Shown here: positions 10,265 to 59,651 of the stretch, one piece after another
Position numbering within the stretch: the stretch's first letter is position 1
Layout: the number at the start of each line of letters is the position of its first letter
IMG/VR virus record: IMGVR_UViG_3300029288_000075
Span: 32,001-96,000 of that record
Source: a virus
Taxonomy: Duplodnaviria > Caudoviricetes
DNA length: 64,000 bases
Direction: 5' to 3' (one strand)
Notes under the pieces: generated by a model
Seen by the model: the letters and a program-made list of their open reading frames with translations, nothing else
Told to the model about the DNA's origin: nothing
The model's database searches: none
Position numbers and translations under genes: made by a program

Positions 10265-11704
10265 ATGAAAACCGCAGGACTCGTTCTAGACCTATACGAC
10301 TCCCCAAAGGACATCAAGCACATCTTCCCCACGCTGGACGATGTACCTGCCCAGATCAAGGAGGCACAGGTTCTTTCCTCTGTCGAGTTGGAAGGCCTGC
10401 CTGACCACCTATTTGCCTTGGTGCTTGACAATGGGGATGCGCCGTTGCGCAAGTACGCCTGCGTAGATGCGGGGGGCACGCTGCTGAACGTAGGGTACTT
10501 CCTGATGCACGGGCACAAGCTTCCTGAGGAGGCACAGAAGGTAGCAGCGCAGAACTTGCAGGTAGCGTGTGGATGGTACGGGTTGGAGCCTCCCGATGAG
10601 TTGTGCAAAGTGGCATTGGGATTGAACACGTTGCTGACAGCGGCGATGGCCCCATCGCTGGTCAAGGGCACAAGCCAGCAGATTGGTAACAATCTGGCAG
10701 GGCTTCAGGCGTCTTCGGGACACGTGATGCCGCTGGGCCAGCAGAGTGCCGCGGGCAGTATGTTGAAGGGCGCAGAGGCGACTGGGTCATCGTTGTTGCC
10801 CGCGCAGGACCCGGGAGACTTGGTAGCTGCGACGGAACGTGGAAAGCCAGGTAGCAGCAACACTAGTGCGGCCAAGTCAGCAAGTACTGGGCACTTGGTA
10901 CCGGGGCATGGTGGAGAAAAAGGCACGGAGCTCGAGCAGGCTTTCGGGGTTGCCAAGGAACAGTACGAAGAGGCCCCGCAGCTGCCCGCGCAGAAGATGT
11001 CCCCTCATGTGGACGTTCGGGGCAAGGAACCGCCCAAGAAGTTGGAGAAGGAAGCTAGTGTAGGGCTGTTTCCTCTCGATAACTATGCGCAGGTGCAAGA
11101 GGCAGTCAGGTATGCCGAGGATAACAAGGATGTGCTTCCTGCGGAGTTCTTACATGACTTCTCCGTGCCCTTGGTGAAGAGGGCATCGCAGCTGGGGCTG
11201 CCTTTGAGTGATGAGCTGCGCGCCTACGGATCGACCACGTTTGCTCCAGATGAGCAACTGCAGGTCGGTCTTGACACACGTAGACAGCACATGTCCAAGG
11301 AAGCCTGTCTGGCGTTGGATGCGTTGTTCGAACAGCGCGGTTTGCTAGGACCGGATGGCTACTGTCAGTTGCTTCAGCACATCGACAAGACTGCCGGCGT
11401 GGAGTGGTTGTACGGGCGGGCCATCCTCAATCCGCAGCTGTCTACGTATGGCGTCACCAAGACGGCAGCTGACGGTGAGGACACCTGGGTGCATGCGAAT
11501 GACTACATTACTCGTGCCCAGATAGAGAACTTTGGGGTTACCGCAGCCCTTGCACTTCGTGACGACTACGGGGATGAATTCGTGAAGGCCTTTCAAAAAG
11601 AGCCGTGGGCGATGTTCAAGTCCTTGCCATTACCCCAACAAGTACGCATAGCGCGGCGCGCCAGTGACAATAGTGCTACGGGCATGCGAGATGTCCAGGT
11701 TTGA
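10265..11704 (+). CDS. Putative head-associated protein, K-x-A rich
   Basis: First gene of the structural module; 12 K-x-A sites; two copies of a KY/F-P/A-x-x-D type module. Confidence 0.7.
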   Translation: MKTAGLVLDLYDSPKDIKHIFPTLDDVPAQIKEAQVLSSVELEGLPDHLFALVLDNGDAPLRKYACVDAGGTLLNVGYFLMHGHKLPEEAQKVAAQNLQVACGWYGLEPPDELCKVALGLNTLLTAAMAPSLVKGTSQQIGNNLAGLQASSGHVMPLGQQSAAGSMLKGAEATGSSLLPAQDPGDLVAATERGKPGSSNTSAAKSASTGHLVPGHGGEKGTELEQAFGVAKEQYEEAPQLPAQKMSPHVDVRGKEPPKKLEKEASVGLFPLDNYAQVQEAVRYAEDNKDVLPAEFLHDFSVPLVKRASQLGLPLSDELRAYGSTTFAPDEQLQVGLDTRRQHMSKEACLALDALFEQRGLLGPDGYCQLLQHIDKTAGVEWLYGRAILNPQLSTYGVTKTAADGEDTWVHANDYITRAQIENFGVTAALALRDDYGDEFVKAFQKEPWAMFKSLPLPQQVRIARRASDNSATGMRDVQV

Positions 11705-12482
11705 GTCACTGTACGCCCGAGTCCTCGAGCAAGTTCCGCGCAAAGTGCCGGAAGAGGATGACCCCACGGTTGTCGTAGAAACGGCGCAGGGTGATGAGCG
11801 CACCATAGATCCCGCCGCGATGGTGCACAGGCCTACAAAGGTGGCGGGGGTTACTCGAGATACGCTGTGGAGGTCCCCGGAGGCGCACCCAATCGTGCTG
11901 GATTTGGTGATGCTGCGAAAGTACGACTTGGCGTGGCTTGGCTATGAAATTGAGACCATTGCCAGGCTGATTCGGGAGGACTTCGGTACCCCCACCGTTG
12001 CTGATGTGAACTTGGAGAAGCTGCAAGCGTGCAAGACGCTACATCTCGTGGATGACTTCTGGTCCAGGTGGGAGGTATTTTTGCCCTGCGCGATGGCTTT
12101 CAACAGCCAGCTGGCAGACTTTCATAGCATGCAGGTACCAACTGTGGCGGAGTGCTTGGTAGCAGTGGACATAGCCAACAGGCTGCGCGATGACTGCAGC
12201 TGGAGTGCTGAGATCAAGGGCTACCTTGGCGCCGTGCACACGTTTGACAGTGAGCTTTGTCCGCAGGAGCCTTTGACCTTTGTGTCGGTGCCAACGGAGG
12301 ATCTGTCTGTGGATGTTGCTGAGGTACGCCGCAGATGGCCCATCGTGCGTGCAGCAGGGCAGATCCCTAAAGGGGACACCTTGGAAGACGAGCAGCTGCG
12401 CAAGATGCTAGGCTCTTGGGTGTACCTGGAAGCCATGCGCAGTCGGCTTCAATCTCAGCTGGTGGTTTTGAACGATGTCTGA
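11691..12482 (+). CDS. Hypothetical virion-module protein
   Basis: ATG 11691 overlaps the previous gene end. Confidence 0.7.
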   Translation: MSRFESLYARVLEQVPRKVPEEDDPTVVVETAQGDERTIDPAAMVHRPTKVAGVTRDTLWRSPEAHPIVLDLVMLRKYDLAWLGYEIETIARLIREDFGTPTVADVNLEKLQACKTLHLVDDFWSRWEVFLPCAMAFNSQLADFHSMQVPTVAECLVAVDIANRLRDDCSWSAEIKGYLGAVHTFDSELCPQEPLTFVSVPTEDLSVDVAEVRRRWPIVRAAGQIPKGDTLEDEQLRKMLGSWVYLEAMRSRLQSQLVVLNDV

Positions 12483-13641
12483 CCCCAACCCAACGCTGCT
12501 TGTACTTGCTGCTTTCGTCGATGAGCTAGCCAAGGAGGCTGCGGTGGCTGACGTCGCCCGCAGGGCGTTATCTCGAGGGGTCTTGCATGGGGTGGGCGCG
12601 GGCGCGGGTGGCGGCCTGGGTCTTGGCATAGGGGCGGGGGCGCTAGCCGGCGGGACGTTGAGCGGGGTTCAACGGTATCGTCAGGCCCGAGAGCAGGGGA
12701 ATAGCTTGGTGTCCTCGCTGGGGTCGGCTGCGGGCGGCGCGGCGCGCGGCGCGCTGCTGGGTGGTGCTGTCGGCGGCGTGGCAGGTACCGGGCTGGGTGC
12801 CGTAGCAGGGGGTGTTGCGCCTACAAAGGTGATCTCTGCCACCAAGAATTTGGCTAAAAGGCAGGATTCCGTAGGATCTTTCTCGCGGTTCGGGCAGCGG
12901 CAGGTTCACAGCCTAACCGGTTGGAAGCCAGGAGGGGCGACGTCGTCCATTGAGTCGATTGGAGCGGGCGCGGCGCCCGCCAGGGCGGCAACCGAGCAAT
13001 CCTTGGAAAAGCTGAAGTCCTCCCCCGAGATGGATGGTGTGGTGAAGGCAGTAGCTTCTGGAGATCGGAGAGCGTCCGACGTGGCTCGAGAAGCTCTTCG
13101 AAAAGGGCCCCAAGCAGAATTGACGGGTACCTTGAAGCGACTGCAAGCGTCAGAAGCCACTCAGCGGATGGGGCTCACCAGCCTTCCTGGTTACGCCAAG
13201 TCGATTCAACGGGAAGGCCTTGTGCCGACGGTGAGGGCCGGCGTGAAAGAGCAATGGCAGGCCAGTGGTCCTAAAGGCAAGGCGATGATGGTTGGCTTTC
13301 CGGCGTTGTATGCGGCACAGACGCTGAAGAGACCCGAGGGTTCGGAGCAGGGTAGGGGTGAAACCATCGGGAAGATGGTGGGTGGAACACTGGGATCCAT
13401 GGCGGCGCCCACGCCGCTGGCAGGCAGTTTAGCGCTTGGGGCTGGCTTCGAACGTGCAGGCGGGTTGGTAGGAAGAGGTGTGGACAGGCTGCGCGGTAGG
13501 CGGCCTGGGCAGGCACAGCGGCCGCAGGTGCCGCAGGAACCGTCGCGCCCGCCGGCAACTGAACCTGGTGACACAGGCCAGGCGGCTGTTGAGCGGGTGT
13601 ACGGTACCGGCTACGGTGGTGGTGCAGGAGGATTGGAGTAG
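12475..13641 (+). CDS. Glycine-zipper protein, putative internal virion/ejection protein
   Basis: AFVDELAKEAA leader followed by multiple GxxxG hydrophobic helices; directly upstream of the portal. Confidence 0.6.
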   Translation: MSDPNPTLLVLAAFVDELAKEAAVADVARRALSRGVLHGVGAGAGGGLGLGIGAGALAGGTLSGVQRYRQAREQGNSLVSSLGSAAGGAARGALLGGAVGGVAGTGLGAVAGGVAPTKVISATKNLAKRQDSVGSFSRFGQRQVHSLTGWKPGGATSSIESIGAGAAPARAATEQSLEKLKSSPEMDGVVKAVASGDRRASDVAREALRKGPQAELTGTLKRLQASEATQRMGLTSLPGYAKSIQREGLVPTVRAGVKEQWQASGPKGKAMMVGFPALYAAQTLKRPEGSEQGRGETIGKMVGGTLGSMAAPTPLAGSLALGAGFERAGGLVGRGVDRLRGRRPGQAQRPQVPQEPSRPPATEPGDTGQAAVERVYGTGYGGGAGGLE

Positions 13642-13644
13642 CCC

Positions 13645-15678
13645 ATGAGTATCCCTGGTTCGTTGATGATGGGTGGCGCCGGCAGCGGTTCTCGTTTTGT
13701 ACAGACCCGTGGGCGCATGGGAAATGGCTACAGCCAGGGGGTCAACTACCCGAGCCCGTTCTTCGACATCGCTCACACGTACTTGCCCATCACCATCAAG
13801 TCGATGCTGCGGTGGTGCCGTTACTACTTTCTGACGAATCCCATCATCAACGCCACAGTCACCAAGTTGGCGGAGTACCCCATTACGGAAATCATGATCG
13901 ACCATCCCGAGAAGCGGGTGGCGGACAAGTGGAAGGAGTACTTCGAAGACCATCTGAACTACCGCGCATTCCAGATTGAGTGTGGCCTTGACTACCATAC
14001 CTACGGGAATTGCCTGTCTAGCTTGAGCTTTCCTTTCAAGAAGTACCTGACGTGTGCTCAATGCGGGTTTCAAGCTGAAGCAAAGCGGATTCGTCCCCAT
14101 TGGGTTTTCACCAATTACGAGTACCGACTGAGTTGTCCCAAGTGCGGCAATCTAGGCACCGCTCGAGCACGTGACGTCTACCTCAAGAGCGAGGATGGTG
14201 TGCAGGTGATGCGGTGGAACCCGGAGGATGTAGAGATTACGTACTCTGCGCTCACGGGGGAGCACACGTACTTCTACAACATACCTGCGTCGGTGCGTAA
14301 CGATGTCATCATAGGTAAGAAGGACGCGGTAGAACAGGTCCCTGAGGTGTTTATTCAGGCGTTGCGCCAGCAGAAGGGTGTTGTATTTTCGAAGGACTTG
14401 TTCTTTCACCTGCGTCGGCCGACGCTGGCTGACCAGGATCGCGGGTGGGGTATTCCTCTGCTTCTTCCCTGTCTGAAAGACACGTTCTACCTGCAGATCA
14501 TGAAGAAGGCGCAAGAGGCCATTCTGCTCGAGCACATTGTTCCTCTGCGCACAATTTCTCCGCAAGCGGGCTCTGGTACCTCTGACCCGTATACCACCAT
14601 CAACCTGGTGGATTGGCGTGATCATGTAGCTACGGAAATTGCGCGTTGGCGCATGGACCCGAACTACATTCCCATCCTGCCGCTGCCCATCTCTAGCCAG
14701 ACCATTGGCGGGGATGGTCGTGCGCTTCTGTTGATCCAGGAGATGCAGGCCATCAGCGAGAACCTCATCAACGGTATGCAGGTTCCGCTCGAGTTCATCA
14801 AAGGTGGCTTGAGCTACGCCGGTACGAATGTGTCGATGCGTATGCTCGAGAACCAGTTCATCATCTACCTGTCGCGGCACAAGCGGCAAGCGCAGTGGGT
14901 GATGCGTAGCGTGGCCGACTACTTAGGGTGGCCGTTGGCTTCCATTCGTTTCAAGCCGTTCAAGATGGCCGACGACATCCAACGTAAGGCCTTCTTGTTC
15001 CAGCTCAACCAAGCCAACAAGGTCAGCGAAACGACATTGCTGGCTGATTCGGATTTGGATCAGGACCGTGAGAATCAGATCATGGAGCGCGAGACGGCGC
15101 AGCGGATCCGTGCAACGGAGAAGCAGCAGCTGGCCACGGCTGAATTGCAGGGCAGGCAGCAAGTTATCATGATGAAGATGCAGGCCAAGGCACAGCAGGA
15201 GATGCAGGCAGCCATGGCTGCCCCCAATGCCCCAGGAGAACCTGGTGGCCCTGCTAGTGGAGCAGCAGCGCCAGGAGGACAGGGCGGCGCTGACGTCATG
15301 CCCAGCAATCCAATGGCGGCTATGCAGAGTCCTCTCAACTCGACCCAGGATATGGGCTTGGGGCATAGCCAACAGCCAGGGCAACAGGCGCAGATGGGTG
15401 GCACTGATATCGTGTTGATGGCGCAGACCTACGCGCAGCAGCTATCTCAGATGAACGCTGCGCAGCAGCTGATCGCCCTCAAGAACTTGCGAACGCAGTC
15501 TCCAGAGTTGGCGGACTTGGTGATGCAGTACTTGCGCAGCATGCCGCGGTCGGTAAACGAGCCTTCTATGCCCGCTGCAAACTCTCAGATGGGGGCGGCC
15601 GGCGCCGCGGCGCAAGAAGTGGATATGACACCGCAGCCAGAGAAGCTTCCGCCAAGACGTGCGGCGGGCATGGTGTGA
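13645..15678 (+). CDS. Portal protein with Zn-ribbon insertion and Q/M/A-rich tail
   Basis: NPIINATVTKLAEYP, DYHTYGNC, FFHLRR...GWGIPLL pattern of HK97/T4-like portals; size and context. Confidence 0.75.
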   Translation: MSIPGSLMMGGAGSGSRFVQTRGRMGNGYSQGVNYPSPFFDIAHTYLPITIKSMLRWCRYYFLTNPIINATVTKLAEYPITEIMIDHPEKRVADKWKEYFEDHLNYRAFQIECGLDYHTYGNCLSSLSFPFKKYLTCAQCGFQAEAKRIRPHWVFTNYEYRLSCPKCGNLGTARARDVYLKSEDGVQVMRWNPEDVEITYSALTGEHTYFYNIPASVRNDVIIGKKDAVEQVPEVFIQALRQQKGVVFSKDLFFHLRRPTLADQDRGWGIPLLLPCLKDTFYLQIMKKAQEAILLEHIVPLRTISPQAGSGTSDPYTTINLVDWRDHVATEIARWRMDPNYIPILPLPISSQTIGGDGRALLLIQEMQAISENLINGMQVPLEFIKGGLSYAGTNVSMRMLENQFIIYLSRHKRQAQWVMRSVADYLGWPLASIRFKPFKMADDIQRKAFLFQLNQANKVSETTLLADSDLDQDRENQIMERETAQRIRATEKQQLATAELQGRQQVIMMKMQAKAQQEMQAAMAAPNAPGEPGGPASGAAAPGGQGGADVMPSNPMAAMQSPLNSTQDMGLGHSQQPGQQAQMGGTDIVLMAQTYAQQLSQMNAAQQLIALKNLRTQSPELADLVMQYLRSMPRSVNEPSMPAANSQMGAAGAAAQEVDMTPQPEKLPPRRAAGMV

Positions 15679-15685
15679 TCTAGGG

Positions 15686-15720: not shown

Positions 15721-15745
15721 CCATCCCCTGCGGGATGGTTCTTGC

Positions 15746-16044: not shown

Positions 16045-16057
16045 TGGTTTTTGGCTA

Positions 16058-29019: not shown

Positions 29020-31149
29020 ATGAACCAGCCATTGTTCCTGACAGCTATGCCAGATTTCGAAAAGGGAGCTGCCGAAACGGCAATGCCCGAGGATCCCAAT
29101 GCTTGGTCCGACGAGGCACTACAAGCCTTGTACAAGCAAGTTCCTTACCTGTCTGACTTCGACTTGCACGTAGAGATGGCGGCGGTGGATGGTGAGCGAG
29201 GGTACGGGTTGGGGCATGTCAAGGTAACGTCGAAGACAGAGGCGCCGATGATGGCGCCAGCAGACCAGCTGAAGTCTGCCGGCATTCGGGAGAGTCGAAT
29301 TCCCATCATCATCAAGGACAACAAGCTGATGCCCTTGGATCTCATCGTAACGGACGACTCCAAGGTGTTGCCACTTACTGAAGGACGTTTGCGTCAGGCC
29401 ATGTTTCGTCCGCAGAACTTTGACGTTACGTCGAAGACGCCAGGCGACCAGTCGATGATTGGGCAGTTGTATCCTCCGTTTCGACAGAACTATGGATTTG
29501 GCGGGGGAGGCGTGGCGGTCAGTGCAGGCATGGGCGGCAAGACTGCCGCTGTGCACAGCGATCTCGAGGCATGGTTGACTGCAGATGTGACGAAGAAAGA
29601 GGCGTCGAGCGCGACCAAGGGTGCACGTTTCCACAAAGCACAGCAGCTACTCGGTAAGACAGGGTCGGTACTGTCGGCGGTACTCCCTACGGCAAACGTG
29701 TCCGACTTGGACGCCTTCCGTGAGGCACTGGGTGACGCTTCTACGAAAGTAGCGTTTTTTCAGAATGTTGCTGCGTATGGGGCGCTGCAGAAGATTGCGG
29801 AGACTGAGCCACGGTCGATTGCTAAGACTGCGGCCAGGCTTGCTGACGTGCTGCGCCCAAGTGTGGTGCAGTTCATCAGCAATGGTGATGGCACCTACGT
29901 TTGCAAGACAGCGAGCAGGCACAGCTGGGAAGCTCGTGAAGTAGAGGTGTCACGGCAGCTGCTGGTTCAGCACATGGGGTCCAAGCTAGCTGCCGAGGTG
30001 GACAGCGCGGGTTCGGTGACGCTAGCTCCCGAGGGTGCCGCAGCAGTCGCTGAGAGCCCACTGCCAGGGTCTGGCGCAGGTCCTATTTCAGCGCCGGGGA
30101 TGTACCAGGTGCAGACCGCGGAAGGGGAATCCCTGTCGGGGGTGGTCGTCCCGAATCTGCTGGATGTGGACGGTACGGCCCTGCCCATCTCCCTTTTCAT
30201 GGATGGTCAGCACGTGGCGGTGCAGGCAGACATGGTGGGTACCCCCCTCGGGGAGTACTCGGCCCCTGGCAGTCTTCCCGCGGATCAGGCCGCCGGGTAT
30301 GGCGTCTTCTACTTCGAGGCCGGAGGCATACCGGTGGCCACTCTCCCATTGCGTTTGGGAGCCAGCGTGGCGGGTATGGAGGGACAGACGGGTCACTTTA
30401 CGGCAGAAACCTTCGATGGGCGCCTCGTACAGGTCAGCGTGCAACCGTACGTGGCAACAGTGGTCGGTGTGGAAGACCAGATGCTCATCCCGAGCACTTG
30501 GTGCTGGATTCCGCTCGATCAGGCGCAAGAGGTAAGCCTGGCGGAGACTGCAGCGACTGCCCAAAAGGTGGCGTCGTCGGCACAAAGGGCGCTTCAAGTC
30601 ACCGTATTGGCAGGTTCGGCCGACAGTTTCTCGTTGCGGGGGGCTCCGGTAGAGAAGCTGGCGGCGGACGAACGGAACTTCCTCACCCAGGACCAGGCGC
30701 TATTTGTTCTAGTTGGCTGTGGGGCCGACCCCACCAAGTCGTTGAACAAGCTGGCGGAAGCGCTGTCGCTACCCGGCAAGCAGGCGACCCTTGCGGTGCC
30801 GCACACCCTGAAGATGGCAGAGGAGGTGCGGGGCGAGAGCTACCTGAATGCCCAGGAGTACCTGGACAATACCCCGTCATTTCGAGTGCGTTTGTGGAAA
30901 GAGGCGGCTGTCATCCCTGACCCAGTCGCGGTCGATACGGTCCTCAGCTTGGGGTTCCTCAATCCGGAGAACATCACAGCATTCGTTGGTTACCTCCCCA
31001 CGCTGGATGAGGCGCAGCGCCGCATGTGCGAGCTGCTCATTGGCGCAAGGCTTGGTTTGCGGGAGCTGTCTGATGGTGCGCTCGAGCGGGCTATTCGCGC
31101 TGTAGAGGACGTCATCGAGGGACTCAAGGTCATCGCTTTCCAGGGCTAA
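29020..31149 (+). CDS. Large putative head-associated protein, K-x-A rich
   Basis: 16 of 28 Lys fall in K-x-A (manual count); GGAG RBS. Confidence 0.7.
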   Translation: MNQPLFLTAMPDFEKGAAETAMPEDPNAWSDEALQALYKQVPYLSDFDLHVEMAAVDGERGYGLGHVKVTSKTEAPMMAPADQLKSAGIRESRIPIIIKDNKLMPLDLIVTDDSKVLPLTEGRLRQAMFRPQNFDVTSKTPGDQSMIGQLYPPFRQNYGFGGGGVAVSAGMGGKTAAVHSDLEAWLTADVTKKEASSATKGARFHKAQQLLGKTGSVLSAVLPTANVSDLDAFREALGDASTKVAFFQNVAAYGALQKIAETEPRSIAKTAARLADVLRPSVVQFISNGDGTYVCKTASRHSWEAREVEVSRQLLVQHMGSKLAAEVDSAGSVTLAPEGAAAVAESPLPGSGAGPISAPGMYQVQTAEGESLSGVVVPNLLDVDGTALPISLFMDGQHVAVQADMVGTPLGEYSAPGSLPADQAAGYGVFYFEAGGIPVATLPLRLGASVAGMEGQTGHFTAETFDGRLVQVSVQPYVATVVGVEDQMLIPSTWCWIPLDQAQEVSLAETAATAQKVASSAQRALQVTVLAGSADSFSLRGAPVEKLAADERNFLTQDQALFVLVGCGADPTKSLNKLAEALSLPGKQATLAVPHTLKMAEEVRGESYLNAQEYLDNTPSFRVRLWKEAAVIPDPVAVDTVLSLGFLNPENITAFVGYLPTLDEAQRRMCELLIGARLGLRELSDGALERAIRAVEDVIEGLKVIAFQG

Positions 31150-33140: not shown

Positions 33141-33142
33141 TG

Positions 33143-38044: not shown

Positions 38045-38635
38045 ATGAACCCAGCAGAAGAGTTCTTGACGGAGAAGAAGGCGTTCGGTCTTGGGGCACT
38101 CACGGGAGCAGCCCGCTCTACGGGTAAAGCAATGTCCCCAGCGGCCAAAGCGTTTGGTTCTGCTGCTGCAGTGGGGGCTGGGGCTGCGGCATTTGCTGGG
38201 CTGGCGGGTGGTGCAAGCAAGCTGTACGCAGCGGCCACCAAGACTCGAGACTTCCGCGCCATGCTGGATGCGAATCCAGACTTGCTACAGCATCAGAAAG
38301 CAGACCCGGCAGGGTTCAATCGCATGTACTCTTCGTTGCGCACATTGGCACCGGAGTTTGCTGCGGAACCGCTGGTAGCTGGCTATTACCTACGTCAAGG
38401 TATGGAGGGCCTCATGGAGGGTCGTGGCGGCGTGTCTGTGCAGGCCATGAATGCAAAGCGTCCTGTGCAGACCGGGCCTATGACGGATGCGGCCTTGCAG
38501 GGGTACATGAGGGGCATGGGTTCGAAGAAGGAAGAGGGTCCTCGACCGCAGTTGGTATCGCAGACGCGACATCGATTCGACCCGGAAACTCAGGGGTGGC
38601 AGCAAACTGAGACCACCGAGAATCGGTACGGATGA
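38045..38635 (+). CDS. Gly/Ala-rich putative internal virion protein
   Basis: Short acidic leader ending in KKA, then an amphipathic/hydrophobic helix. Confidence 0.65.
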   Translation: MNPAEEFLTEKKAFGLGALTGAARSTGKAMSPAAKAFGSAAAVGAGAAAFAGLAGGASKLYAAATKTRDFRAMLDANPDLLQHQKADPAGFNRMYSSLRTLAPEFAAEPLVAGYYLRQGMEGLMEGRGGVSVQAMNAKRPVQTGPMTDAALQGYMRGMGSKKEEGPRPQLVSQTRHRFDPETQGWQQTETTENRYG

Positions 38636-40413: not shown

Positions 40414-41163
40414 ATGTCCGGAATCAACGCTCTACTGAACGATGCATACGCAAAGACCGCTGCCACCGCTGAAGATCTCGAGAAGACTGCCCAGCTCGAG
40501 TACTTTGGTGCTCTCTGTGAACGGGAGAGCATCGACGTAGCCCGTCTGGATGACGAGCAAGCCATGAACCTCTTCAAGACTGCGATGGAGATGAAGGCTG
40601 CAGAAGAAGAGGCCGCCAAGGAAGAGAAGAAGGAAGAGGGCAAGGAGGGTAAGAAGGCCCCTCCATTCGGTGGTCCTGCGCATGAAGCCAAGGAAACTCC
40701 CAAAGAGGAGAAGAAGGAAGAGAAGGCCAAGGAAGCCGCCGTGCAAGAGTGGCAGTCCAAGGTTGCCGAGGCGCGATCCGCGTATGAGGCGACTGTGGCC
40801 GGCCGTCTTATGGCAGATGCGTTCATCGACCAGATGCAGAAGCGCGCTGCGGCGGGTGAGGCGGGCGCTGCTGGAGATGCGGCGCGTGCGGTCATCGAGC
40901 AGGCAAAGATTGCATCGGCTGCCCCTGCTCGGTCGGATACTCCTTCGATCGATTTCGTTGCGGGCAACCGCGCCATCGACCTTCTCAAGGAGGCCGGCTA
41001 CGACGCGGACGAGGTAGTGAGCAAGGTCAACGCCATCTACACGCTGGGGCTGCCCGCCAGTACCAAGCTTGCTTCTGTGCCAGACTTCAACAGCGCTGTA
41101 GAGATGCGTGCCCTCGAGATTTGTGAACTTGCTGGCGCGTCGGTGGATTGGAGCAAGGTCTAG
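40414..41163 (+). CDS. Scaffold-like acidic helical protein
   Basis: E/K/A-rich, 11 K-x-A sites, between protease and MCP. Confidence 0.6.
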   Translation: MSGINALLNDAYAKTAATAEDLEKTAQLEYFGALCERESIDVARLDDEQAMNLFKTAMEMKAAEEEAAKEEKKEEGKEGKKAPPFGGPAHEAKETPKEEKKEEKAKEAAVQEWQSKVAEARSAYEATVAGRLMADAFIDQMQKRAAAGEAGAAGDAARAVIEQAKIASAAPARSDTPSIDFVAGNRAIDLLKEAGYDADEVVSKVNAIYTLGLPASTKLASVPDFNSAVEMRALEICELAGASVDWSKV

Positions 41164-41211: not shown

Positions 41212-42639
41212 ATGAGGAAAGTCGCAGACGCAACATCCGTACCCTTCGCTGATTCAGCGATGGACACTGCTGCGTCAGCTCCACTCCCAGGGTTGGCGGT
41301 AGGGAACAAGCCGGCGCCCGGTCAGGTCGGTCCCAAGGGCATCTCTCCGCGCACCAACTACTCTCGCGTGAACACCGGATCTCCACAACCAGTGGATGCC
41401 GGGGTGACTTCCCAAAAGGGGGCTGCCCCGGATTCACAGAACTTTCTCCCTCCGAAGATTGCTAGTGAGGTTTACATGTCGTCTACTGCGCGTAAGACCA
41501 TTCAAGAGATGATCAAGGCCGCCGCTGAAGGTACCTTGAATCAGACTTCGGTAGCGGTGGAGGCGGAGCGTCAGCAAGGAGCACCGGTGGCGAAAGTTGC
41601 CTCGGCGGAACTCCCCATGGACGTGCCGTCTGTTCCCACTGACTACGTCCACAAGCTTGCGAACGCCTGCGATTTCATGCTGGGTGACTGGCGTGAAAAG
41701 GCAGCGGCGGAGCTCGGCCCTGGTACGGGCCCCAACGCGCTTGCGGTATCGCAGGCAACTTCCTCGAACAATGAGTTCACCTCTGGGAATCAGGGGCAGG
41801 CAACTCCGGCACACGTGCCGCCAAAGAACCCAGGCACGCAGAAGCCCTCTGAGACTCCTGCCGGCGCCTCAAACGCCCTGGAGGACAACGCGGCAATGAA
41901 GCACAAGGAGCAGCCCGTGAAGTTGGGCGGCGCTCTGCGTCCTGCCTCGTTGGCACTGACAGGAACCAAGTCGGCAGGAGTGCGCGATGCTGCTATCACT
42001 GCGCTTGGTACCGCCAAGGGGCTAGGTAAGGACTTGGCCGCGGCTCATCCGCAGGCCACAAAGGCGCTCAAAGGCGTCGGTACCGCTGCCGGTGGTGCTG
42101 CTGGCGGTGCAGCAGCAATCCATCTCCTTGGCAAAGGCAAGAAGAAGGAAGCTTCTGCTGTCCATGCGTGGCTGCTAGACTGGGATGCACGCATGTCCAA
42201 GAAGGCAGAGGACGCCATCAACCCCGCGCAGATTTCGGCAGGAGCCGCGGTTCCTCCGGAAACCAGCGCTGCGGGTGAAGCTGGTGGAGCTCCTGCCGGT
42301 GGACAGCCTCAGGGCCCCACGAGTTTGGTGGGTTCGAACGAATCGGCCATCAACTACACCAAGGGTACGGCGAAGGCACCGGTGAAGGGGCAGCTTGCCA
42401 GCTACCTTACTGAGCCAGCGCTCTCTGCCGCGCATGACAGCACGTTGGACAAGGCGTTCGATCATACCGGTCAGGCCGGTGTGAAGATCTCTTCTCTGCG
42501 GGCAGCGGCGGCACGGGCAGTTCTGAGTAAACTGTCTGCCGCGGCGTGTCCCACGGGCGAGACCAAGAAGAAGACGTCCGCGGGCATGAGCAACTTCACC
42601 GCCCCCCCAGTCTCCGGCGCCGCCGCCGGTCCTATGTAA
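41212..42639 (+). CDS. Ala/Pro/Gly-rich K-x-A segmented head protein
   Basis: Low-complexity segments delimited by KIAS, KVAS, KSAG, KEAS, KKAE. Confidence 0.65.
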   Translation: MRKVADATSVPFADSAMDTAASAPLPGLAVGNKPAPGQVGPKGISPRTNYSRVNTGSPQPVDAGVTSQKGAAPDSQNFLPPKIASEVYMSSTARKTIQEMIKAAAEGTLNQTSVAVEAERQQGAPVAKVASAELPMDVPSVPTDYVHKLANACDFMLGDWREKAAAELGPGTGPNALAVSQATSSNNEFTSGNQGQATPAHVPPKNPGTQKPSETPAGASNALEDNAAMKHKEQPVKLGGALRPASLALTGTKSAGVRDAAITALGTAKGLGKDLAAAHPQATKALKGVGTAAGGAAGGAAAIHLLGKGKKKEASAVHAWLLDWDARMSKKAEDAINPAQISAGAAVPPETSAAGEAGGAPAGGQPQGPTSLVGSNESAINYTKGTAKAPVKGQLASYLTEPALSAAHDSTLDKAFDHTGQAGVKISSLRAAAARAVLSKLSAAACPTGETKKKTSAGMSNFTAPPVSGAAAGPM

Positions 42640-42656: not shown

Positions 42657-43013
42657 ATGCAAAAGCTAAGTGCAGCGCAGCAATGCGAGATTCTAGAAGA
42701 GGTTCCCAGCGTTTTGCGTGCAGTGGCCGCAGAGCGTGACCTGTACAAGACCGCGTATCTGCAGATTGCAGAGCGGTCGCAGGTCGAAAAACTAGCCGGT
42801 GCCATGATCGAAAAAGGTCTACGCGCCGGCAGTGTCGAGGCTGTTGCCAACGAGTTGCAGAAGCAGGCGAAAGCCGGCGCTATCGACTTGGAGGTCACCT
42901 CGCAAGCTGTGGAGCTCGTAGGTCCGGACATGGGCAAGCTTGCTCATTTGTCCGACGAGCTCTCGAGTTCCGCAGGGTCCAGCGACCTGGAGCGGTATGT
43001 TGTCGGAGGATAG
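42657..43013 (+). CDS. Small scaffold-like coiled-coil protein
   Basis: GGAGG RBS; helical; K-x-A sites. Confidence 0.6.
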   Translation: MQKLSAAQQCEILEEVPSVLRAVAAERDLYKTAYLQIAERSQVEKLAGAMIEKGLRAGSVEAVANELQKQAKAGAIDLEVTSQAVELVGPDMGKLAHLSDELSSSAGSSDLERYVVGG

Positions 43014-43603: not shown

Positions 43604-44722
43604 ATGTCCGTTCCGGCGAGTGTACTGAACGAGCTCTTTGCTTCGAAACTCAGCACGAGTGAAGGCAAGGAAAAGATCGCCGAGTATGGTGGTAGTTACA
43701 TTCGAGACCGCCTCCGCGAGGTGAGCTTTGCCCGCAAAGTCATCCCGCCGGAGCAGGTCACGCGTGCCGACTGCCAACGCTCGGTGAACCACGACACCTT
43801 GGTCAAGATTGTCGACGTGGAGCCCAAGAGCCGCGCCATGGCAATTTCGTTCCGAGGGCAACCGACAGCCCGCTTCATTCGAGGCGAAAAGGCCGAGGTC
43901 GCATTCTTCACCATCAGTTCCGAGATGTTCCAGAAGACGGAGCAGGAGCTGTTGGCCTACGAGATGCCCATCACCAAGATCATCGAAGAGAACTCGGTGA
44001 AGGACATCCAGGAAATCGAGGACCGCGAGTTCACGATCCACGTTGAAGCCGCCGTGCAAGCGTTGCAGACGGAAGCCAATGGTGGGACTCCCACTGCGCT
44101 GCACGTCGGCACCATCGGTACTACCGTGGAGTTCTCGGTGCGCAAGGGTGAGCTTGCTCGCAACGCCGCAGCGAACACGGCGGAGGTTCTCCCGGTCAGC
44201 CGCGTGGACATCGTCGCCCTGTTCAAGATGTTGGACGGGAATCGTCTGCGGTCCGAGCGGTTGCTCATGACCGAGATGGACTGGGACGACATCTTGTCTT
44301 GGACGGTGGAAGACTTCGGTGACCGTATTCAGTCCGAAACGACTGTCGACGGCTACAAGTACAACACCATTCTTGGTCGTGCGTACATTCGCACCATCAA
44401 GACGGACATCCTGCGCCCCGGCAACATCTACACCTTCGCCAAGCCGGAGTTCTTCGGGAAGTTCTACGTCCTGAACAACACCAAGTTCTACATCGACAAG
44501 ATCGCCAACACGATCACCTTCCAGGCGTGGGAAGACATCGGTATGTCGGTCATCAACATCGCGGCGGTCCGCAAGCTCGAGCTCTACTCGGGCGATGCAA
44601 ACCCCACGACGAACGCAGACGGCCTCCTCGACAACTTCATCCCGAGGTCCGAGGACGCGCTGGGTGCGGTCAACAACCGTGTGGATGCGGGCCTCAAGTT
44701 CCCGCAGGTTTCGCAGTACTAG
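43604..44722 (+). CDS. Major capsid protein (HK97 fold)
   Basis: 372 aa, strong codon bias, IRDRLREVSFARKVIPP and KDIQEIEDREF; follows protease/scaffold/cement; downstream terminator. Confidence 0.85.
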   Translation: MSVPASVLNELFASKLSTSEGKEKIAEYGGSYIRDRLREVSFARKVIPPEQVTRADCQRSVNHDTLVKIVDVEPKSRAMAISFRGQPTARFIRGEKAEVAFFTISSEMFQKTEQELLAYEMPITKIIEENSVKDIQEIEDREFTIHVEAAVQALQTEANGGTPTALHVGTIGTTVEFSVRKGELARNAAANTAEVLPVSRVDIVALFKMLDGNRLRSERLLMTEMDWDDILSWTVEDFGDRIQSETTVDGYKYNTILGRAYIRTIKTDILRPGNIYTFAKPEFFGKFYVLNNTKFYIDKIANTITFQAWEDIGMSVINIAAVRKLELYSGDANPTTNADGLLDNFIPRSEDALGAVNNRVDAGLKFPQVSQY

Positions 44723-46588: not shown

Positions 46589-47059
46589 ATGATGAAGATC
46601 GAAAAGTACGGCACCCTGGAAGAAGCCAACTTGAAGATTCAGGGCGGCATCACGGGGGGCGTTTCTACCAGCCAGGCCTTCGTGGGACTTGTTGGTGAAA
46701 CTATCACGTTTGCTACCCCCGCCGGGTCTTGTACTTTTACGCAGCCTAGCGGTGTGGCGGGGGTACTTACGTTCAAGGACGTCAAGTCGCAGTTGGAGAC
46801 TGCTATTACGAACTTGCTGGTGAGCTCAGTGGACAACAAGCTCTGCTTCGAGCATGCGCTGGATGGTTCCTACGTGTCCCTAGCTGCAGCGACGCCGGTT
46901 GAACCGGCGCGTGCTGTACTTGGTCTTGGGCAAGGTGAGGCAATTACGGGTCGTTGCTTGAATGGCCCTAGCTCGACCGACCTTCCACGCTTTGTGGAGT
47001 TCGTGACAGAGGCGTTGTTCATTTACGTGGCTGTTGAACTACCGAATGCAGGTGCCTAA
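46589..47059 (+). CDS. Hypothetical structural protein
   Basis: GGAG RBS; composition resembles the sheath insertion domains. Confidence 0.55.
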   Translation: MMKIEKYGTLEEANLKIQGGITGGVSTSQAFVGLVGETITFATPAGSCTFTQPSGVAGVLTFKDVKSQLETAITNLLVSSVDNKLCFEHALDGSYVSLAAATPVEPARAVLGLGQGEAITGRCLNGPSSTDLPRFVEFVTEALFIYVAVELPNAGA

Positions 47060-48744
47060 TGGATGCCTTTCAAGTAGGGTTGAGTCGTGGGATCCCCGCA
47101 AAGACGGCAGCAGCCTACTTCGTGGGGTTGAAGAGCTGGCAGTCGCTTTCTCCGGAAAACGACGAGCTCATGGCAGCTTGCGTCAAAAAGGCGGCAGTAC
47201 TGACTGGTGCTTCAACGCAGCCCGGCACTTCGAAGACAGCCGCGCTACTCGAGAAATTCCGCAAGATCGCGGCAGAGGAGTCCACCCACCACGCTGGGGA
47301 GATGGCTACTCCAGCGCCTGCTGACGATGACCCCGCACAGCAGTATGCAGCAAACGAGCAGCAGGCTATGCAGGCGGAAGAGCAGAATGCGGCCGCCTAC
47401 TACCAGCAGGCTCTTCAAGGGCTGCGTGCGCAGCTGGCTGACATGCAGGAGCATTCGCAGTCCCTCGAGCAGCAGAATGCACAATTGACGGAGCAGCAAG
47501 CCGCGCACGACACTGAAGTGCAGAATGCCCAGCAGGAGGTGCAGCTGGCGCAGCAAGCGGCGCTCGAGCAAACCCAAAGTGCCGCGGCACAAGCGACTCA
47601 GTCCATGCAGCAAGCTGTGGATGCTGAGAACCGCGCCCTGCAGGCCAAGTCTCAGGAAGCGGCAGCCAAGATTCAGCAGCAGCAGGTGCGCAGTCAGCTC
47701 TTCGACCTGGCGTCCCAGGGGTTGCCCGGGTCAGAGCCCCAGATTGGAGAGGGTGCCGCGGCAGAGGGGCTACAGCCCACTCAACCAGCGGCGCAGCCGG
47801 GGGCAGAGCCGGGAGCAATGCCCGGTGAACAAGGTGCCCCTCCGGGGGCAGAGCCGGGGGCACCAGCTGCGGCCGGCGGAGAGACCCCCAGCGCTGGCAT
47901 GAATGAAGCTGGTCAACCCGCGAATGCCGAAGGAATGCCGGGTCAGGAGGCTTCAGCCGAGACGGCTGGCGCCGCGGCGCCGCCCGGATCTGTGCAACCT
48001 TCGGGTGATTCATCTGGTGGCGCCGGCGCGGGGTCGGGGACTGGTCCACAGGCGGCATCCGAGGGTGACCCTCAGAATCCCACGGCCAAACGAACAGGCC
48101 AGGTGTCCATCAAGGTAGGTGGTGCCAGTCCGGTGTCGTACGGCGACGTAGTCGCGTTCTTGGGGGGACGCCACGGCCGCCCTTTACCCGTGCAGGGTAA
48201 GGTTGCCGGTGTAGGCTCTGCCGCCAAGGAGTGGGCACTCAAGAAGGTATTGGAGTCGCCTGTAGTGAAGGAGCACGAGCAACGGCTGGTGCGTAATGCG
48301 TCACTCGCAGCAGGTGGTTCAGCGCTTGCTGGAGGGTACGCCGGGCATCGTATGGCTGCCCACAAGGATCAGAACAAGACGGCAGGTGTCCTTCAGAATC
48401 CATCGGTTGTTGGTGGACTCGCCGGTGGTGCCCTTGGATTAGGCTTGGGTGCGATGGAAGCAACGGGGCATGGCCCGGATTTGGAGAAGTTGCGCACCAA
48501 GGTCGAGGGGCAGGAAGCACAGCTGAAGCAACCTGGTCTGCGCAACTTTGGGCAGGCCTTCAACGTCGTGTACAACCGGATGCTCCTGACGCACGGAGAA
48601 GCAGTGAAGAGCCATCCCGTGTTGGGTACGTTGGCCAGCGGTGCTGCTGGTGCGGCAATGGGGGCTGAGGCAGGGCACGAATTTCCTACACTACTTCGCG
48701 AAGCGAAGGGGTGGCATGCAATGGGACGACCGCCGGTAGGCTAG
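47059..48744 (+). CDS. K-x-A segmented polyprotein-like protein (Q-rich coiled coil, P/A/G linker, Gly-zipper modules)
   Basis: Composition changes abruptly at KIAA, KVAG, KTAG. Confidence 0.65.
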   Translation: MDAFQVGLSRGIPAKTAAAYFVGLKSWQSLSPENDELMAACVKKAAVLTGASTQPGTSKTAALLEKFRKIAAEESTHHAGEMATPAPADDDPAQQYAANEQQAMQAEEQNAAAYYQQALQGLRAQLADMQEHSQSLEQQNAQLTEQQAAHDTEVQNAQQEVQLAQQAALEQTQSAAAQATQSMQQAVDAENRALQAKSQEAAAKIQQQQVRSQLFDLASQGLPGSEPQIGEGAAAEGLQPTQPAAQPGAEPGAMPGEQGAPPGAEPGAPAAAGGETPSAGMNEAGQPANAEGMPGQEASAETAGAAAPPGSVQPSGDSSGGAGAGSGTGPQAASEGDPQNPTAKRTGQVSIKVGGASPVSYGDVVAFLGGRHGRPLPVQGKVAGVGSAAKEWALKKVLESPVVKEHEQRLVRNASLAAGGSALAGGYAGHRMAAHKDQNKTAGVLQNPSVVGGLAGGALGLGLGAMEATGHGPDLEKLRTKVEGQEAQLKQPGLRNFGQAFNVVYNRMLLTHGEAVKSHPVLGTLASGAAGAAMGAEAGHEFPTLLREAKGWHAMGRPPVG

Positions 48745-48753: not shown

Positions 48754-50580
48754 ATGTTGAACGAATACTTGCTGCGTGCATACAGGCAGACTCAAACCAA
48801 GGAGGCGAGTCGTCAGCTACAGGAGAAGCTCGCTAGGTTTCCCTTGCAAGACTTGATTGCCTTGGCGAGTGGAGATCCGACTGCGAAGTTGGCGTATTGC
48901 GATGGTCCTTGCGAGGCGAATGAGCCCAAAACTTGGTTGGACAAGTTCAAGGGATCCCCGCTGTTCGAGAAGGCAGTGTCCTTGGAGAAGACGTTGCTTG
49001 AAGCGGATGCGGCGTCTGATGCCAAGAGGTCAGAGGAGCGTGAAACCGACCGCGAGCTCGATGCGCGCCGTGACGAGCTCCGTATGCAGAAGCGGCTGCT
49101 TGACTTGGACCTTGCCCTCGAGCAGGAAGGGGCGGCGGCTCCTGCGGAAGCTGCAACGGCAGCGCCCACGGCACAGGCTGAACCGGCCCCAATAGGCGGT
49201 GGTACAGCCGTTGAGGTGAAGCAGGCTTCTTCCTCGCACAACTCCGCGCACGTGATGGAGTTCTATCGCAAGCGGGCGGAATTCTTGAAGATTGCCGGAG
49301 CCGTAGGCGCGTTCATTCCCGAGACGCGAAGTACGGGTAGGGTACCAGCGACGGATAGAGCGCAGGGCGCCGGCGCGGGCGAGTACACCGTCGACCCGTC
49401 GGAGGTAGTTACTGGCGGGTTGCAGGTGGACAAAGTGGCAGCTCTTCAGTCAGCAGACAAACCTAAGGTGGATCCGCAGGAGCTGCGGAAGAAGATCCTT
49501 CAGGAGTACCCGCACCTCGATAAGCGGGCTGATTTTGGTGGTTTTGACACGCCAGAAGAGCACCAGCAGGCGGTGGATGCGCTAAAGGCGCAGGCGGCGC
49601 AACAAGAGGCGCATCCAGTGTCTTCTCGTATTCGTTCGGGTCTTGGTACAGCGGCTGTAGGGGCACTAGGTGGATCTATGCTTGGTGGCGCAGCTTATCC
49701 TGGTGTACGGGGAACCTTGGTTGGTGCAGGTCTTGGTGCACTCGGTGCAGGTGCATACGGTGCAACTCGAGTACCAGGGGCAGAAGCTAGGCGTGAGGCG
49801 ACTGCACTGGAAGATGAAGTGCGTCCGGAGGCACTCAGGAACGAGGCTGCCGAAAACGAGAGGATTGCAGACGACGTTGATGCCAACCCCGGCAAGTACC
49901 GTTTGCGGCGAGGTATCGCAGGGGGCATTGCAGGGGGTCTAGCGGGCGCGGGTCTTGGCAGCTTGGTGCCTAGGAGCGTGGGAGCTCCGTTACTAGGTGC
50001 TGGTGTTGGTGCTCTCACCGGTGGGGGCCTTGCAGCCTTGCGTAAGCCTGACGGTGCAGCATTTCGTGAGGATGCTGCTACGATGCGAGCCCATTTGGCA
50101 AAGAAGCAGGCCAATGTGCTGGATGCCGAGGCGCGGGCGCACATCAAAAAGAAGAACTTCGCCATACCCGAAGAGAAGAAGTACCCAATCGAAAACAAGC
50201 CCCATGCTGAGAATGCGCTATCGCGGGTCGACACCTTTGGTACCTCTTCGGAAAAGTCTCGCGTGCATTCGGCAGTTGCCCGGCACTACCCCGGGTTGGC
50301 TGCGCGCTCGAGCGTTCCGGACGTGGCCTCCAAGGGCAAGGCACAGCTGCGAAAGAAGGCAATGAATCTGGGAGGGATCCTCCAGGGTGCCAAGAGCATT
50401 GGGTCCAGTGCACGGAATCTGGCTGTTACGTCCCATGCGGCGGGCGGGTTACCCCAGGTGGCCAAGTCATTTGGCAACGTAGCAAAGGGCTTCGTCATGA
50501 AAAATCCACTGGCAGCCGCCGGCGCAGCGGGTCTTGGCGGTGCAGCGTTGGGCAGGGCCACTGCCCCAAGTAGACCCTAA
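48754..50580 (+). CDS. K-x-A segmented polyprotein-like protein (coiled coil, Gly zippers, KYPIEN..HA.NAL module)
   Basis: 10 K-x-A sites bounding distinct modules. Confidence 0.65.
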   Translation: MLNEYLLRAYRQTQTKEASRQLQEKLARFPLQDLIALASGDPTAKLAYCDGPCEANEPKTWLDKFKGSPLFEKAVSLEKTLLEADAASDAKRSEERETDRELDARRDELRMQKRLLDLDLALEQEGAAAPAEAATAAPTAQAEPAPIGGGTAVEVKQASSSHNSAHVMEFYRKRAEFLKIAGAVGAFIPETRSTGRVPATDRAQGAGAGEYTVDPSEVVTGGLQVDKVAALQSADKPKVDPQELRKKILQEYPHLDKRADFGGFDTPEEHQQAVDALKAQAAQQEAHPVSSRIRSGLGTAAVGALGGSMLGGAAYPGVRGTLVGAGLGALGAGAYGATRVPGAEARREATALEDEVRPEALRNEAAENERIADDVDANPGKYRLRRGIAGGIAGGLAGAGLGSLVPRSVGAPLLGAGVGALTGGGLAALRKPDGAAFREDAATMRAHLAKKQANVLDAEARAHIKKKNFAIPEEKKYPIENKPHAENALSRVDTFGTSSEKSRVHSAVARHYPGLAARSSVPDVASKGKAQLRKKAMNLGGILQGAKSIGSSARNLAVTSHAAGGLPQVAKSFGNVAKGFVMKNPLAAAGAAGLGGAALGRATAPSRP

Positions 50581-57127: not shown

Positions 57128-57150
57128 TAGACTCGTAGAAGGAGCAGACA

Positions 57151-58295: not shown

Positions 58296-58308
58296 TATCC
58301 TAGGGAGC

Positions 58309-58965: not shown

Positions 58966-59003
58966 CTTGTCCTTTTGGGAGGGGTGCGGGTACACTCTTC
59001 GTG

Positions 59004-59651
59004 ATGTCTGTTCATCCTGCCCTGAAGACGGCCGAAGACTGGTCTCCTACTCGGTTGGGCCTGCCGCTGGCAGTTCTTGCTGGTGGAACGCTGCTGTACC
59101 ACGGGTTGCGCAAGGGTAGACAAAGCGATGCCAACGCTGACCTTGCGAGAGACCAAGCTGTACGCGACGTAGCAGCTCAGCGCAACGCCGGTGTAGTTGG
59201 TACCTTGCGTGGCGGTTCCCCCTTGAACCCCGCGGGTGCTGCCATCTACAACAACGAGAGGGCGCAAAGCGCGGACATTGGGGACACTCTCATGTTTGAC
59301 AAGGGCGCCATGGCGCAGCTTCAGCGGTCGTGCACGTTGGTGGCAAAGCATGCGGGCATTGGTGGGGCTGTATTGGGGGCGGTCAACAAGCTGCCTAATT
59401 TGCTTGGAAAACCGCTAGGCGCAGTAGGCCGCACCGCGGTGAAGGGGTTGAAGGCTGTGACACCAAGCACCGGGATGGGCACCAAGCTCATGCTGGGGGC
59501 GGGCGCTGCCGGATTGGGCTATGGGGCGTACAAAGCGGGCAAAGGTGTCTACAACTACGGTATGCAGCAGAACTCTCCCCGAGAGCTCGGCGGACATGCC
59601 GCGGCGTTGCCCACCTACACGAACCAGTTTGGCGTTCCTACGATGGGTTGA
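59004..59651 (+). CDS. K-x-A/Gly-zipper protein
   Basis: KTAE, KHAG then a cationic amphipathic segment; -10-like TACACT 7 nt before ATG. Confidence 0.65.
   Translation: MSVHPALKTAEDWSPTRLGLPLAVLAGGTLLYHGLRKGRQSDANADLARDQAVRDVAAQRNAGVVGTLRGGSPLNPAGAAIYNNERAQSADIGDTLMFDKGAMAQLQRSCTLVAKHAGIGGAVLGAVNKLPNLLGKPLGAVGRTAVKGLKAVTPSTGMGTKLMLGAGAAGLGYGAYKAGKGVYNYGMQQNSPRELGGHAAALPTYTNQFGVPTMG

Follow-up and report, generated by a model that had tools for sequence, protein, structure and literature searches.

A conserved Lys-x-Ala motif in the head proteins of an uncultured phage and the prohead maturation protease likely to recognize it

The 64-kb window analysed here (bases 32001-96000 of a single 187,857-bp IMG/VR record, IMGVR_UViG_3300029288_000075; 57% guanine-cytosine (GC) content; 99% complete according to CheckV) is the head-morphogenesis region of a ~188-kb phage. 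We report that head proteins encoded in this window carry a selected Lys-x-Ala (K-x-A) motif, and consider it likely that the product of open reading frame (ORF) 38632 is a prohead maturation protease recognizing Lys at P3 and Ala at P1 in ~11 head protein families and probably cutting after the Ala (ORFs are named by the window position at which they start). Proteolysis at K-x-A, the bond that is cut and what becomes of the fragments are inferred. Cleavage codes of this kind are familiar from T4 (L/I-x-E), phiKZ (S/A/G-x-E) and herpes assemblin (V/L/I-x-A followed by Ser), and the best reading of the present data is a maturation system in the style of T4 and phiKZ operating with a different code. 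The idea goes back to an earlier note on the same DNA, made from the letters alone, which had listed about 14 head-associated proteins with K-x-A sites and had named 38632 as the candidate protease.

The over-representation of K-x-A claimed in that note was measured for each ORF against 5000 composition-preserving within-protein shuffles, which keep the Ala and Lys content. The manual counts were reproduced (11 of 19 Lys in 36765, 16 of 28 in 29020, and 12, 11 and 10 sites in 10265, 40414 and 48754), as was the absence of sites from a 'primase' with about 17 Lys, which we matched by its 17 Lys to the 322-residue minus-strand ORF 3371-4339 (0 of 17). Three ORFs exceeded the shuffles at p<0.0002, namely 10265 (12 observed vs 3.2 expected), 29020 (16 vs 3.7) and 36765 (11 vs 2.7), followed by 40414 (11 vs 4.9, p 0.002), 42657 (4 vs 1.1, p 0.01) and 38632 itself (8 vs 3.7, p 0.024); 41212 reached 11 vs 7.0, with p 0.067 when taken alone. 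Seven further ORFs (12475, 38045, 47059, 48754, 51479, 56780 and 59004) are not enriched singly and give 26 vs 19.3 when pooled (p 0.09); 12475 and 38045 hold one site each, and the counts in 47059 (7 vs 4.4) and 48754 (10 vs 7.1) are not significant alone. Since the excess survives shuffles that preserve composition, Ala-richness does not explain it. When all 400 a-x-b pairs were scanned over the plus-strand genes of 10265-59651, K-x-A came first (128 vs 78.6, z 5.6) and L-x-K second. The rest of the genome shows no K-x-A excess (185 vs 178.6), and outside the flagged region the motif occurs only in Lys/Ala-rich low-complexity contexts; two Lys/Ala-rich ORFs elsewhere, at 25860-26705 (minus strand) and 95765-96565 (plus strand) of the genome, have raised counts (10 vs 3.3 and 14 vs 7.7).

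The nature of the motif was examined in a pool of 41 orthologous proteins, made up of six families from the window and six relatives. This pool contains 428 K-x-A against 155 expected; K-A is depleted (114 vs 156), and neither R-x-A (80 vs 96) nor the reverse A-x-K (107 vs 155) is enriched. K-x-x-S reaches 172 vs 74, smaller excesses of K-x-x-A and K-x-x-x-A reflect the residues that follow the Ala, and no i+3/i+4 periodicity is left beyond that due to Ala at P1' and P2'. At the nucleotide level, the pattern AAR-NNN-GCN falls 61 times in frame and 3 and 2 times in the other frames, and codon use at K-x-A sites equals codon use elsewhere. K-x-A is a directional, Lys-specific, protein-level motif. 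A DNA-level motif is excluded by the in-frame-only pattern and the normal codon use, and helical periodicity by the lack of an independent i+3/i+4 signal. A logo built from 422 sites, with orthologous sites included so that the counts are not all independent, gives the consensus D/E-D/E-[LFM]-E-K-[TLIQ]-A followed by [SAEG]-A, an asymmetric footprint of ~8 residues. P7 and P6 are acidic, P5 is Leu, Phe or Met (Leu 94 vs 36 expected), P4 is Glu (86 vs 31), P2 is Thr, Leu, Ile or Gln with Pro, Gly and Asp avoided, P1' avoids Ile, Val, Leu, Arg and Asp, and P2' is Ala. The Ser, Ala, Gly or Glu that had been said usually to follow the motif is found at P1' (Ser 117, Ala 102, Glu 52, Gly 31).

The conservation of sites in homologues, to which the earlier note had looked as a check, was assessed in alignments with six syntenic relatives whose proteases are 53-69% identical to 38632. 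Site Lys and Ala are conserved at 0.55-0.76, other Lys stand near 0.4 (0.40-0.44), other Ala near 0.35 (0.33-0.44), flanking residues at ~0.3 and the middle residue x at 0.06-0.38 (0.06-0.41 when the 10265 homologues are counted in). The contrast is weaker in the protease and in the small 42657 family because both are more conserved throughout. Judged from these alignments, the motif is under purifying selection. With the enrichment confined to head-module proteins, and Lys and Ala kept while x and the flanks drift, the claim that K-x-A is a selected motif of these proteins stands.

The clade to which this phage is assigned is large and has few cultured members; Salmonella phage Arash, Vibrio phage D69 and Bacillus phage G are distantly related to it. 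Its nearest cultured relatives are Arash and Vibrio phages D69, D181 and D148, at a protein identity of only 27-33%, and megablast with a 12-kb query found nothing in the phage collection. When the a-x-b scan was run on head modules of the six metagenomic relatives, K-x-A ranked first in every one (z 4.9-8.6), with the excess carried by the same orthologue families. It also ranked first in the head modules of Arash (70 vs 38.7), D69 (56 vs 28.1) and phage G (58 vs 31.3); in phage G, K-x-x-S in addition tops the next spacing. The head module of mycobacteriophage Phabba is not K-x-A-enriched as a whole; its 1209-residue protein with a homologous protease domain is (16 vs 7.1, p 0.0005). The motif accompanies this family of proteases through different hosts and GC contents. 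The scan was also run on T4 gp21-gp24 as a positive control, and there I-x-E and L-x-E, the established cleavage code of T4 gp21, took the first two places; the analogy originally drawn with the P3-x-P1 codes of T4, phiKZ and herpesviruses fits.

The Phabba protein, gp233 (L012:11788-15417), is annotated as hypothetical; its neighbours are a LysM endolysin-like protein on one side and the capsid gene on the other. The homologous protease domain forms the N-terminus of gp233 and, more generally, of a 1209-residue protein in cluster-C mycobacteriophages; gp233 is probably an unannotated protease-scaffold fusion.

ORF 38632 (38632..40320, plus strand) encodes 562 residues. A leader (residues 1-32) ending at K30-x-A32 precedes the catalytic domain (residues ~33-295), in which H118 (nt 38983-38985), S174 in PDVSMG (nt 39151-39153; DVSMG at residues 172-176) and D266 in FFDIS (nt 39427-39429) are located; a disordered linker (residues ~295-364) with the conserved sites K319-x-A321 and K350-x-A352 leads to a helical C-terminal domain with sites K488 and K533. 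Its homologues number more than 1200 when clustered at 90%, and clustering at 50% identity leaves at least 2578 representatives. The protein gave no PHROG, Pfam or PDB sequence-profile match, a Pfam search with 23 aligned homologues at E<=10 was also empty, and the Pfam models Peptidase S77, S78 and S80 found no match at E<=10 in a six-frame search of the 99%-complete genome. By these comparisons the 38632 family is a separate sequence family, outside Pfam S77/S78/S80.

The N-terminal 300 residues were modelled with a 53-sequence alignment (predicted local distance difference test (pLDDT) 87.8, predicted template modelling score 0.83). A BFVD structure search with this model returned 104 matches at E<=1e-3, many of them annotated as prohead protease and including gp19 of phage G (E 6e-15), a phiRSL1 protein and a PaBG protein. 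A feature search of the ESM Atlas gave proximity to S77/S80 at the level of a lead only (0.90-0.91), and from a first full-length fold, built on a shallow alignment (pLDDT 55), nothing was taken but the pattern of disorder and the C-terminal domain. On the strength of the domain model we are confident that 38632 adopts the assemblin/HK97/T4-gp21 fold (MEROPS clan SH). H118, S174 (P-D-V-S-M-G) and D266 (F-F-D-I-S) do not vary among 53 diverse members of the family, nor in Arash and D69, and D182 is likewise invariant in diverse members and in these two phages. In SPN3US gp245 the published triad has the order His-Ser-Asp (H77/S153/D178; PMC5694885). The order and spacing of H118 and S174, together with the alignment end-points, fit H85 and S140 of gp21, and the catalytic residues are probably H118, S174 and D266. 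The genes run in the order terminase 33041, 36765, 38045, protease 38632, scaffold-like 40414, 41212, 42657, 43036 and major capsid protein (MCP) 43604, an order that is syntenic in the six metagenomic relatives and places 38632 where a prohead protease gene is expected, in the head module and near the scaffold-like and MCP genes. The earlier identification of 38632 as the protease is thus upheld by its fold model and gene position, and the Ser of DVSMG that it had singled out is invariant across the family. Models of ClpP and of S49 (lambda gpC-type) proteases found no match at E<=10 in the genome and matched in 14 of 14 control genomes; a protease of either type was therefore rejected, and in view of the missing ClpP match the likeness of -SMG- to the ClpP serine motif is taken as coincidental.

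The catalytic domain is also a target of inteins. Homologues of the domain encoded by 38632-39531 contain Hint, Intein_splicing and LAGLIDADG matches (e.g. P0121, P0133, P0137, P0143 and P0146), at five points within ~300 residues: in G-S-N-x-N-G-D, immediately before H-H, immediately after S-M-G, in D-T|C-S and near residue 238. A single homologue carries up to three (P0137, 1691 residues), which makes this an unusually dense target at conserved motifs. Inteins tend to sit in catalytic motifs of essential enzymes, a tendency that these insertion points fit. In some relatives the large terminase measures 968-975 residues against ~600-650, with one LAGLIDADG_3 match (L007:4566-7493; ENA contig of P0064), and is probably intein-bearing too.

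Within 38632, the conserved K-x-A sites map to parts that the full-length model predicts with low confidence, taken as disordered: the N-terminus (K30), the linker 295-364 (K319, K350) and the loop 471-493 (K488). K319 and A321 are invariant in an otherwise hypervariable, indel-rich linker, and the N-terminal F-E-K-x-A site is invariant as well.

Among the putative substrates, a first group is marked by a site at the end of a short N-terminal leader, an arrangement that the earlier note had described. The MCP (43604..44722, plus strand; phrog_2522, major head protein) has K24-I-A26 (nt 43673-43681); a K-x-A at residues 23-29 is kept in 9 of 9 MCPs including those of Arash and D69, and the site is predicted to remove a 26-residue N-terminal propeptide. 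The small Gly/Ala-rich protein 38045 (38045..38635, plus strand, 196 residues) opens with a leader of the form NP-x-E/D-x-F-L ... K-x-A ending at K11-K-A13; leader and site are kept in 7 of 7 members while the remainder varies, which suggests a probable single-site substrate. The leader sites of 47059 (47059..48744, plus strand, 561 residues; K15-T-A17) and 48754 (48754..50580, plus strand, 608 residues; K16-E-A18, with a second conserved K-L-A near residue 45) are both kept in 6 of 6 members; by this conservation 47059 is a probable single- or few-site substrate and 48754 a probable substrate. A leader site is also conserved in 29020 (5 of 6 members, 4 of 5 orthologues) and in most members of the 40414 family. 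Orthologues of 47059 (L005:17778-20168, L007:19342-21692 and L008:19201-20862) match Pfam Ferritin/Rubrerythrin, and this family may be a ferritin-like cargo within the phage head, reminiscent of encapsulin cargo. The BFVD structural matches of the protease model, for their part, include a 'Ferritin/DPS domain' phage protein.

The second group carries many sites per protein. The scaffold-like, Ala/Glu/Lys-rich protein 40414 (40414..41163, plus strand, 249 residues, 11 K-x-A) is encoded directly 3' of the protease; its orthologues have 9-13 sites vs 4-6 expected, and the scaffold-like proteins Arash gp223 and D69 0271 contain 8-10 copies of [L/M]-x-K-x-A-[S/A]. Multi-site 36765 (36765..38039, plus strand, 424 residues) starts at 36765 and not at 36489, the relatives' gene calls being 402-440 residues; its orthologues have 8-13 sites vs 2-3.5, with site Lys/Ala conserved at 0.76/0.74 against 0.44/0.34 for the others. 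In 29020 (29020..31149, plus strand, 709 residues; orthologues 11-17 vs 3-4) one site, K15, lies in the N-terminal leader, and residues ~325-515 and 630-709 are free of sites. The 12 sites of 10265 (10265..11704, plus strand, 479 residues, upstream of the portal gene) are spaced at ~25-60 residues; 118 homologues (28-73% identity) together hold 1542 vs 415 expected, 7-17 each vs 2-5, and site Lys/Ala are conserved at 0.70/0.76 vs 0.35/0.34 for other Lys/Ala. A probable multi-site substrate is 41212 (41212..42639, plus strand, 475 residues, 11 sites, of which 102 and 330 are kept in 6 of 6), whose orthologues have 9-16 vs 5-8, about twofold over expectation in all six relatives, and a small one is 42657 (42657..43013, plus strand, 118 residues, four sites, of which 45 and 69 are kept in 6 of 6; orthologues 4-7 vs ~1). 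Enrichment and conservation thus point to about 11 substrate families, seven by multi-site enrichment (10265, 29020, 36765, 38632, 40414, 41212 and 42657) and four by the leader only (38045, MCP, 47059 and 48754). Of the ~14 proteins originally listed, roughly this number of families is backed; 12475, 51479, 56780 and 59004 are not supported as substrates.

On this basis the maturation system would operate as follows. The protease would read a short linear motif in which P3 is Lys and P1 is Ala, preferably with Leu, Phe or Met at P5, Glu at P4 and Thr, Leu, Ile or Gln at P2, and with a small residue (Ser, Ala or Gly) or Glu at P1', the cut falling most likely after the Ala. In the assembled prohead, leaders would be trimmed from the MCP (26 residues), from the protease itself (32 residues) and from several internal proteins; the protease would free its own catalytic domain through cuts in the surrounding disordered linkers; and scaffold-like 40414 together with multi-site 10265, 29020, 36765, 41212 and 42657 would be cut to fragments of ~10-190 residues. 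Sites at leader ends, in the linkers flanking the catalytic domain and at high density in the scaffold-like protein are placed as expected of a maturation protease. To call these ORFs polyproteins, as the earlier note did, is an interpretation; breakdown at many sites, in the manner of a scaffold or core protein, would suit the data just as well. A bolder extension, which we regard as doubtful, is that 10265, 29020, 36765, 41212 and 42657 are true polyproteins cut to defined peptides of 10-190 residues, which would be kept with the DNA and injected as effectors beside leader-targeted cargo (such as 38045 and the ferritin-like protein), the K-x-A leader serving as a portable capsid-targeting-and-release tag across the large-phage superfamily.

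Such a system resembles that of T4 gp21 (MEROPS S77) in several respects. The His...Ser order is the same, local motifs around gp21 H85 and S140 are similar (N-x-N-[K/G]-[R/D]-x-[Y/F] and DKL-[A/V]-A...P-x-V-S), and the two have in common the logic of one protease, a P3-x-P1 motif, removal of leaders from capsid and internal proteins and degradation of the core or scaffold, which here is predicted. Unlike gp21, to which it has no sequence-level match (Pfam S77, hhalign), 38632 would read Lys and Ala where T4 has Leu/Ile at P3 and Glu at P1, and at 562 residues it has ~75 residues inserted into the catalytic domain as well as a helical domain at the C-terminus. phiKZ gp175 and SPN3US gp245 (MEROPS S80) likewise come from large phages whose heads hold many internal proteins and whose virions contain an RNA polymerase; however, 38632 has no S80 match, P1 is Ala rather than Glu with Lys at P3, the terminase is of the gpA type and sequence shows no relationship of the lineage to phiKZ. 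The SPN3US code is A-x-E, with many substrates, self-cleavage of the protease and propeptides that contain several motif copies (PMC10052503). Herpesvirus assemblin (MEROPS S21) shares the predicted Ala|Ser junction and a specificity-determining P3, but that P3 is hydrophobic in herpesviruses and Lys here, Asp, as in phages, and not His is probably the third residue of the catalytic set, and two sites in one scaffold precursor contrast with dozens in many proteins. Homologues of 38632 in cultured phages include G gp19, Arash gp222 and D69 0270 (tblastn E 1e-7 to 4e-32), which have the same His, Ser-Met-Gly and FF-[D/E]-IS motifs and belong to head modules with a K-x-A excess, yet are only 26-33% identical to it; G gp19, at 300 residues, ends without the long C-terminal domain. 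Its annotation is head maturation protease, with no specificity given (PMC12484599); Arash gp222 is annotated only as 'structural protein', and the Arash paper mentions no protease.

Several observations weigh against cleavage of K-x-A by 38632. No Pfam prohead-protease model matches 38632 and hhalign of its alignment against T4 gp21 gave no signal, so that the family assignment is carried by the predicted structure. A position-specific scoring matrix of the context only, trained on the relatives' sites in six families, gave 8% vs 4% high-scoring sites in other late proteins; the extended context transfers weakly outside the core families, and since it separates poorly there the full logo is not claimed for the weaker ORFs. 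Invariant K-x-A also occur inside folds, at K276 and K283 in a strand of 38632, at K299 of the MCP and at sites 32 and 63 of 10265 (Q/C at P1'), and these are probably structural and uncut. The MCP of phage G has no K-x-A at all. Finally, the Arash virion proteome, a fully tryptic shotgun study of 116 'virion' proteins including many enzymes, reports coverage of up to 100% for several K-x-A-rich proteins, gp223 and gp221 among them; the published coverage values are uninformative about processing.

The most probable alternative, although we think it unlikely, is a trypsin-like cut after the Lys (P1 = K), with x and Ala at P1' and P2'. Sequence statistics cannot place the bond, and the logo is equally constrained on either side of the Lys. 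Characterized members of the superfamily (T4, SPN3US, herpes), however, use a P3-x-P1 code, and the preference for Ser/Ala with no bulky residues after the Ala resembles the herpes A|S junction; because of these codes and this junction we infer that the bond lies after the Ala.

That the motif is not proteolytic at all and the proteins stay uncut, K-x-A serving in docking or capsid-targeting to the shell interior, portal or scaffold, or in Lys modification or cross-linking, appears rather improbable. The statistics do show selection on a motif and not cleavage, an invariant Lys might be needed for some chemistry unrelated to recognition by a protease, and the Arash mass-spectrometric coverage of gp223 and gp221 is compatible with uncut proteins. 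In favour of proteolysis, the motif has the P3-x-P1 arrangement, small at both P1 and P1', that is known from the superfamily codes, and the same scan recovers the T4 cleavage code. Sites, moreover, close N-terminal leaders and occupy the disordered linkers to either side of the protease domain, and K-x-A keeps company with the protease family in different hosts and at different GC contents.

Very little probability attaches to cleavage by another enzyme, either a second phage protease or a host one, with 38632 inactive or of other specificity. Such a protease could hide among the ~80% of phage proteins that are unannotated; but S77, S78, S80, ClpP and S49 models detected no further prohead protease in the genome, 38632 combines invariant His/Ser/Asp, the right fold and a canonical gene position with its own K-x-A at the domain borders, and against a host enzyme the motif co-occurs with the protease family in Salmonella, Vibrio and Bacillus/Lysinibacillus hosts. 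An artefact of Ala/Lys-rich composition or amphipathic-helix periodicity, which the Ala-richness of the proteins and the modest enrichment of 40414 and 41212 after correction might have suggested, is effectively refuted by the within-protein shuffles (p<0.0002 for three ORFs), the lack of enrichment of K-A, A-x-K and R-x-A, the lack of an independent i+3/i+4 signal, the low-complexity contexts to which the motif is restricted in K/A-rich proteins elsewhere in the genome and the positional conservation of the sites.

Other genes of the window complete the picture. Most of the remaining proteins matched no family. The gpA-type large terminase (33041..34987, plus strand; PF05876, phrog_675) served as a negative control, with 1 K-x-A vs 1.6 expected. 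The portal protein (13645..15678, plus strand; tblastn to the Arash gp204 portal, E 2e-79) is not enriched (4 vs 2.7). A fused beta-beta' RNA polymerase of 2131 residues is encoded by a single ORF (20188-26583; 11 vs 12.3) that aligns to Arash gp206 (beta) and gp216 (beta'), which are the top virion proteins by spectral count in the Arash proteome. Between the terminase and 36765 genes lies a minus-strand gene (36013-36729, ~235 residues, weak HTH_17 matches), the lone antisense gene within the late head operon, whose position and orientation are kept in 6 of 6 relatives. In the baseplate region, 57151-57915 encodes a 254-residue homologue of Arash gp237 with zero lysine, and the adjoining 57915-58295 has one Lys in 126 residues. 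Beyond the window, more late-strand ORFs open with leaders that end in K-x-A, at 87548-87784, 89202-90068 and 93585-94340 when its numbering is continued; one of these leaders, …A-D-E-F-L-E-T-K-Q-K-T-A, resembles that of 38045.

The earlier note did not recognize the K-x-A specificity as characterized, and the literature searched agrees, giving L/I-x-E, S/A/G-x-E and A-x-E; no description of a phage protease specific for K-x-A, or of processing in phage G, was found there. For T4, phiKZ-like phages and herpesviruses, it was through the respective code that the processed, targeted and ejected head proteins could be mapped. Lys-x-Ala would be a computationally well-supported third phage code, belonging to a protease family that sequence models do not recognize and that is large (at least 2578 clusters at 50% identity), with members in phage G, the largest cultured phage, and in the 'orphan' phages Arash and D69. 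It would annotate the protease and about ten substrates in genomes in which ~80% of the genes have no assigned function, and it predicts mature N-termini that are checkable in existing mass spectra, while the cultured Arash, D69 and G make the code bench-testable. The targeting sequence of T4 has reportedly been used already to load foreign proteins, and the short leader might likewise load them into these capsids. An Ala|Ser junction with a determinant at P3 would add a further link between the phage and herpesvirus enzymes.

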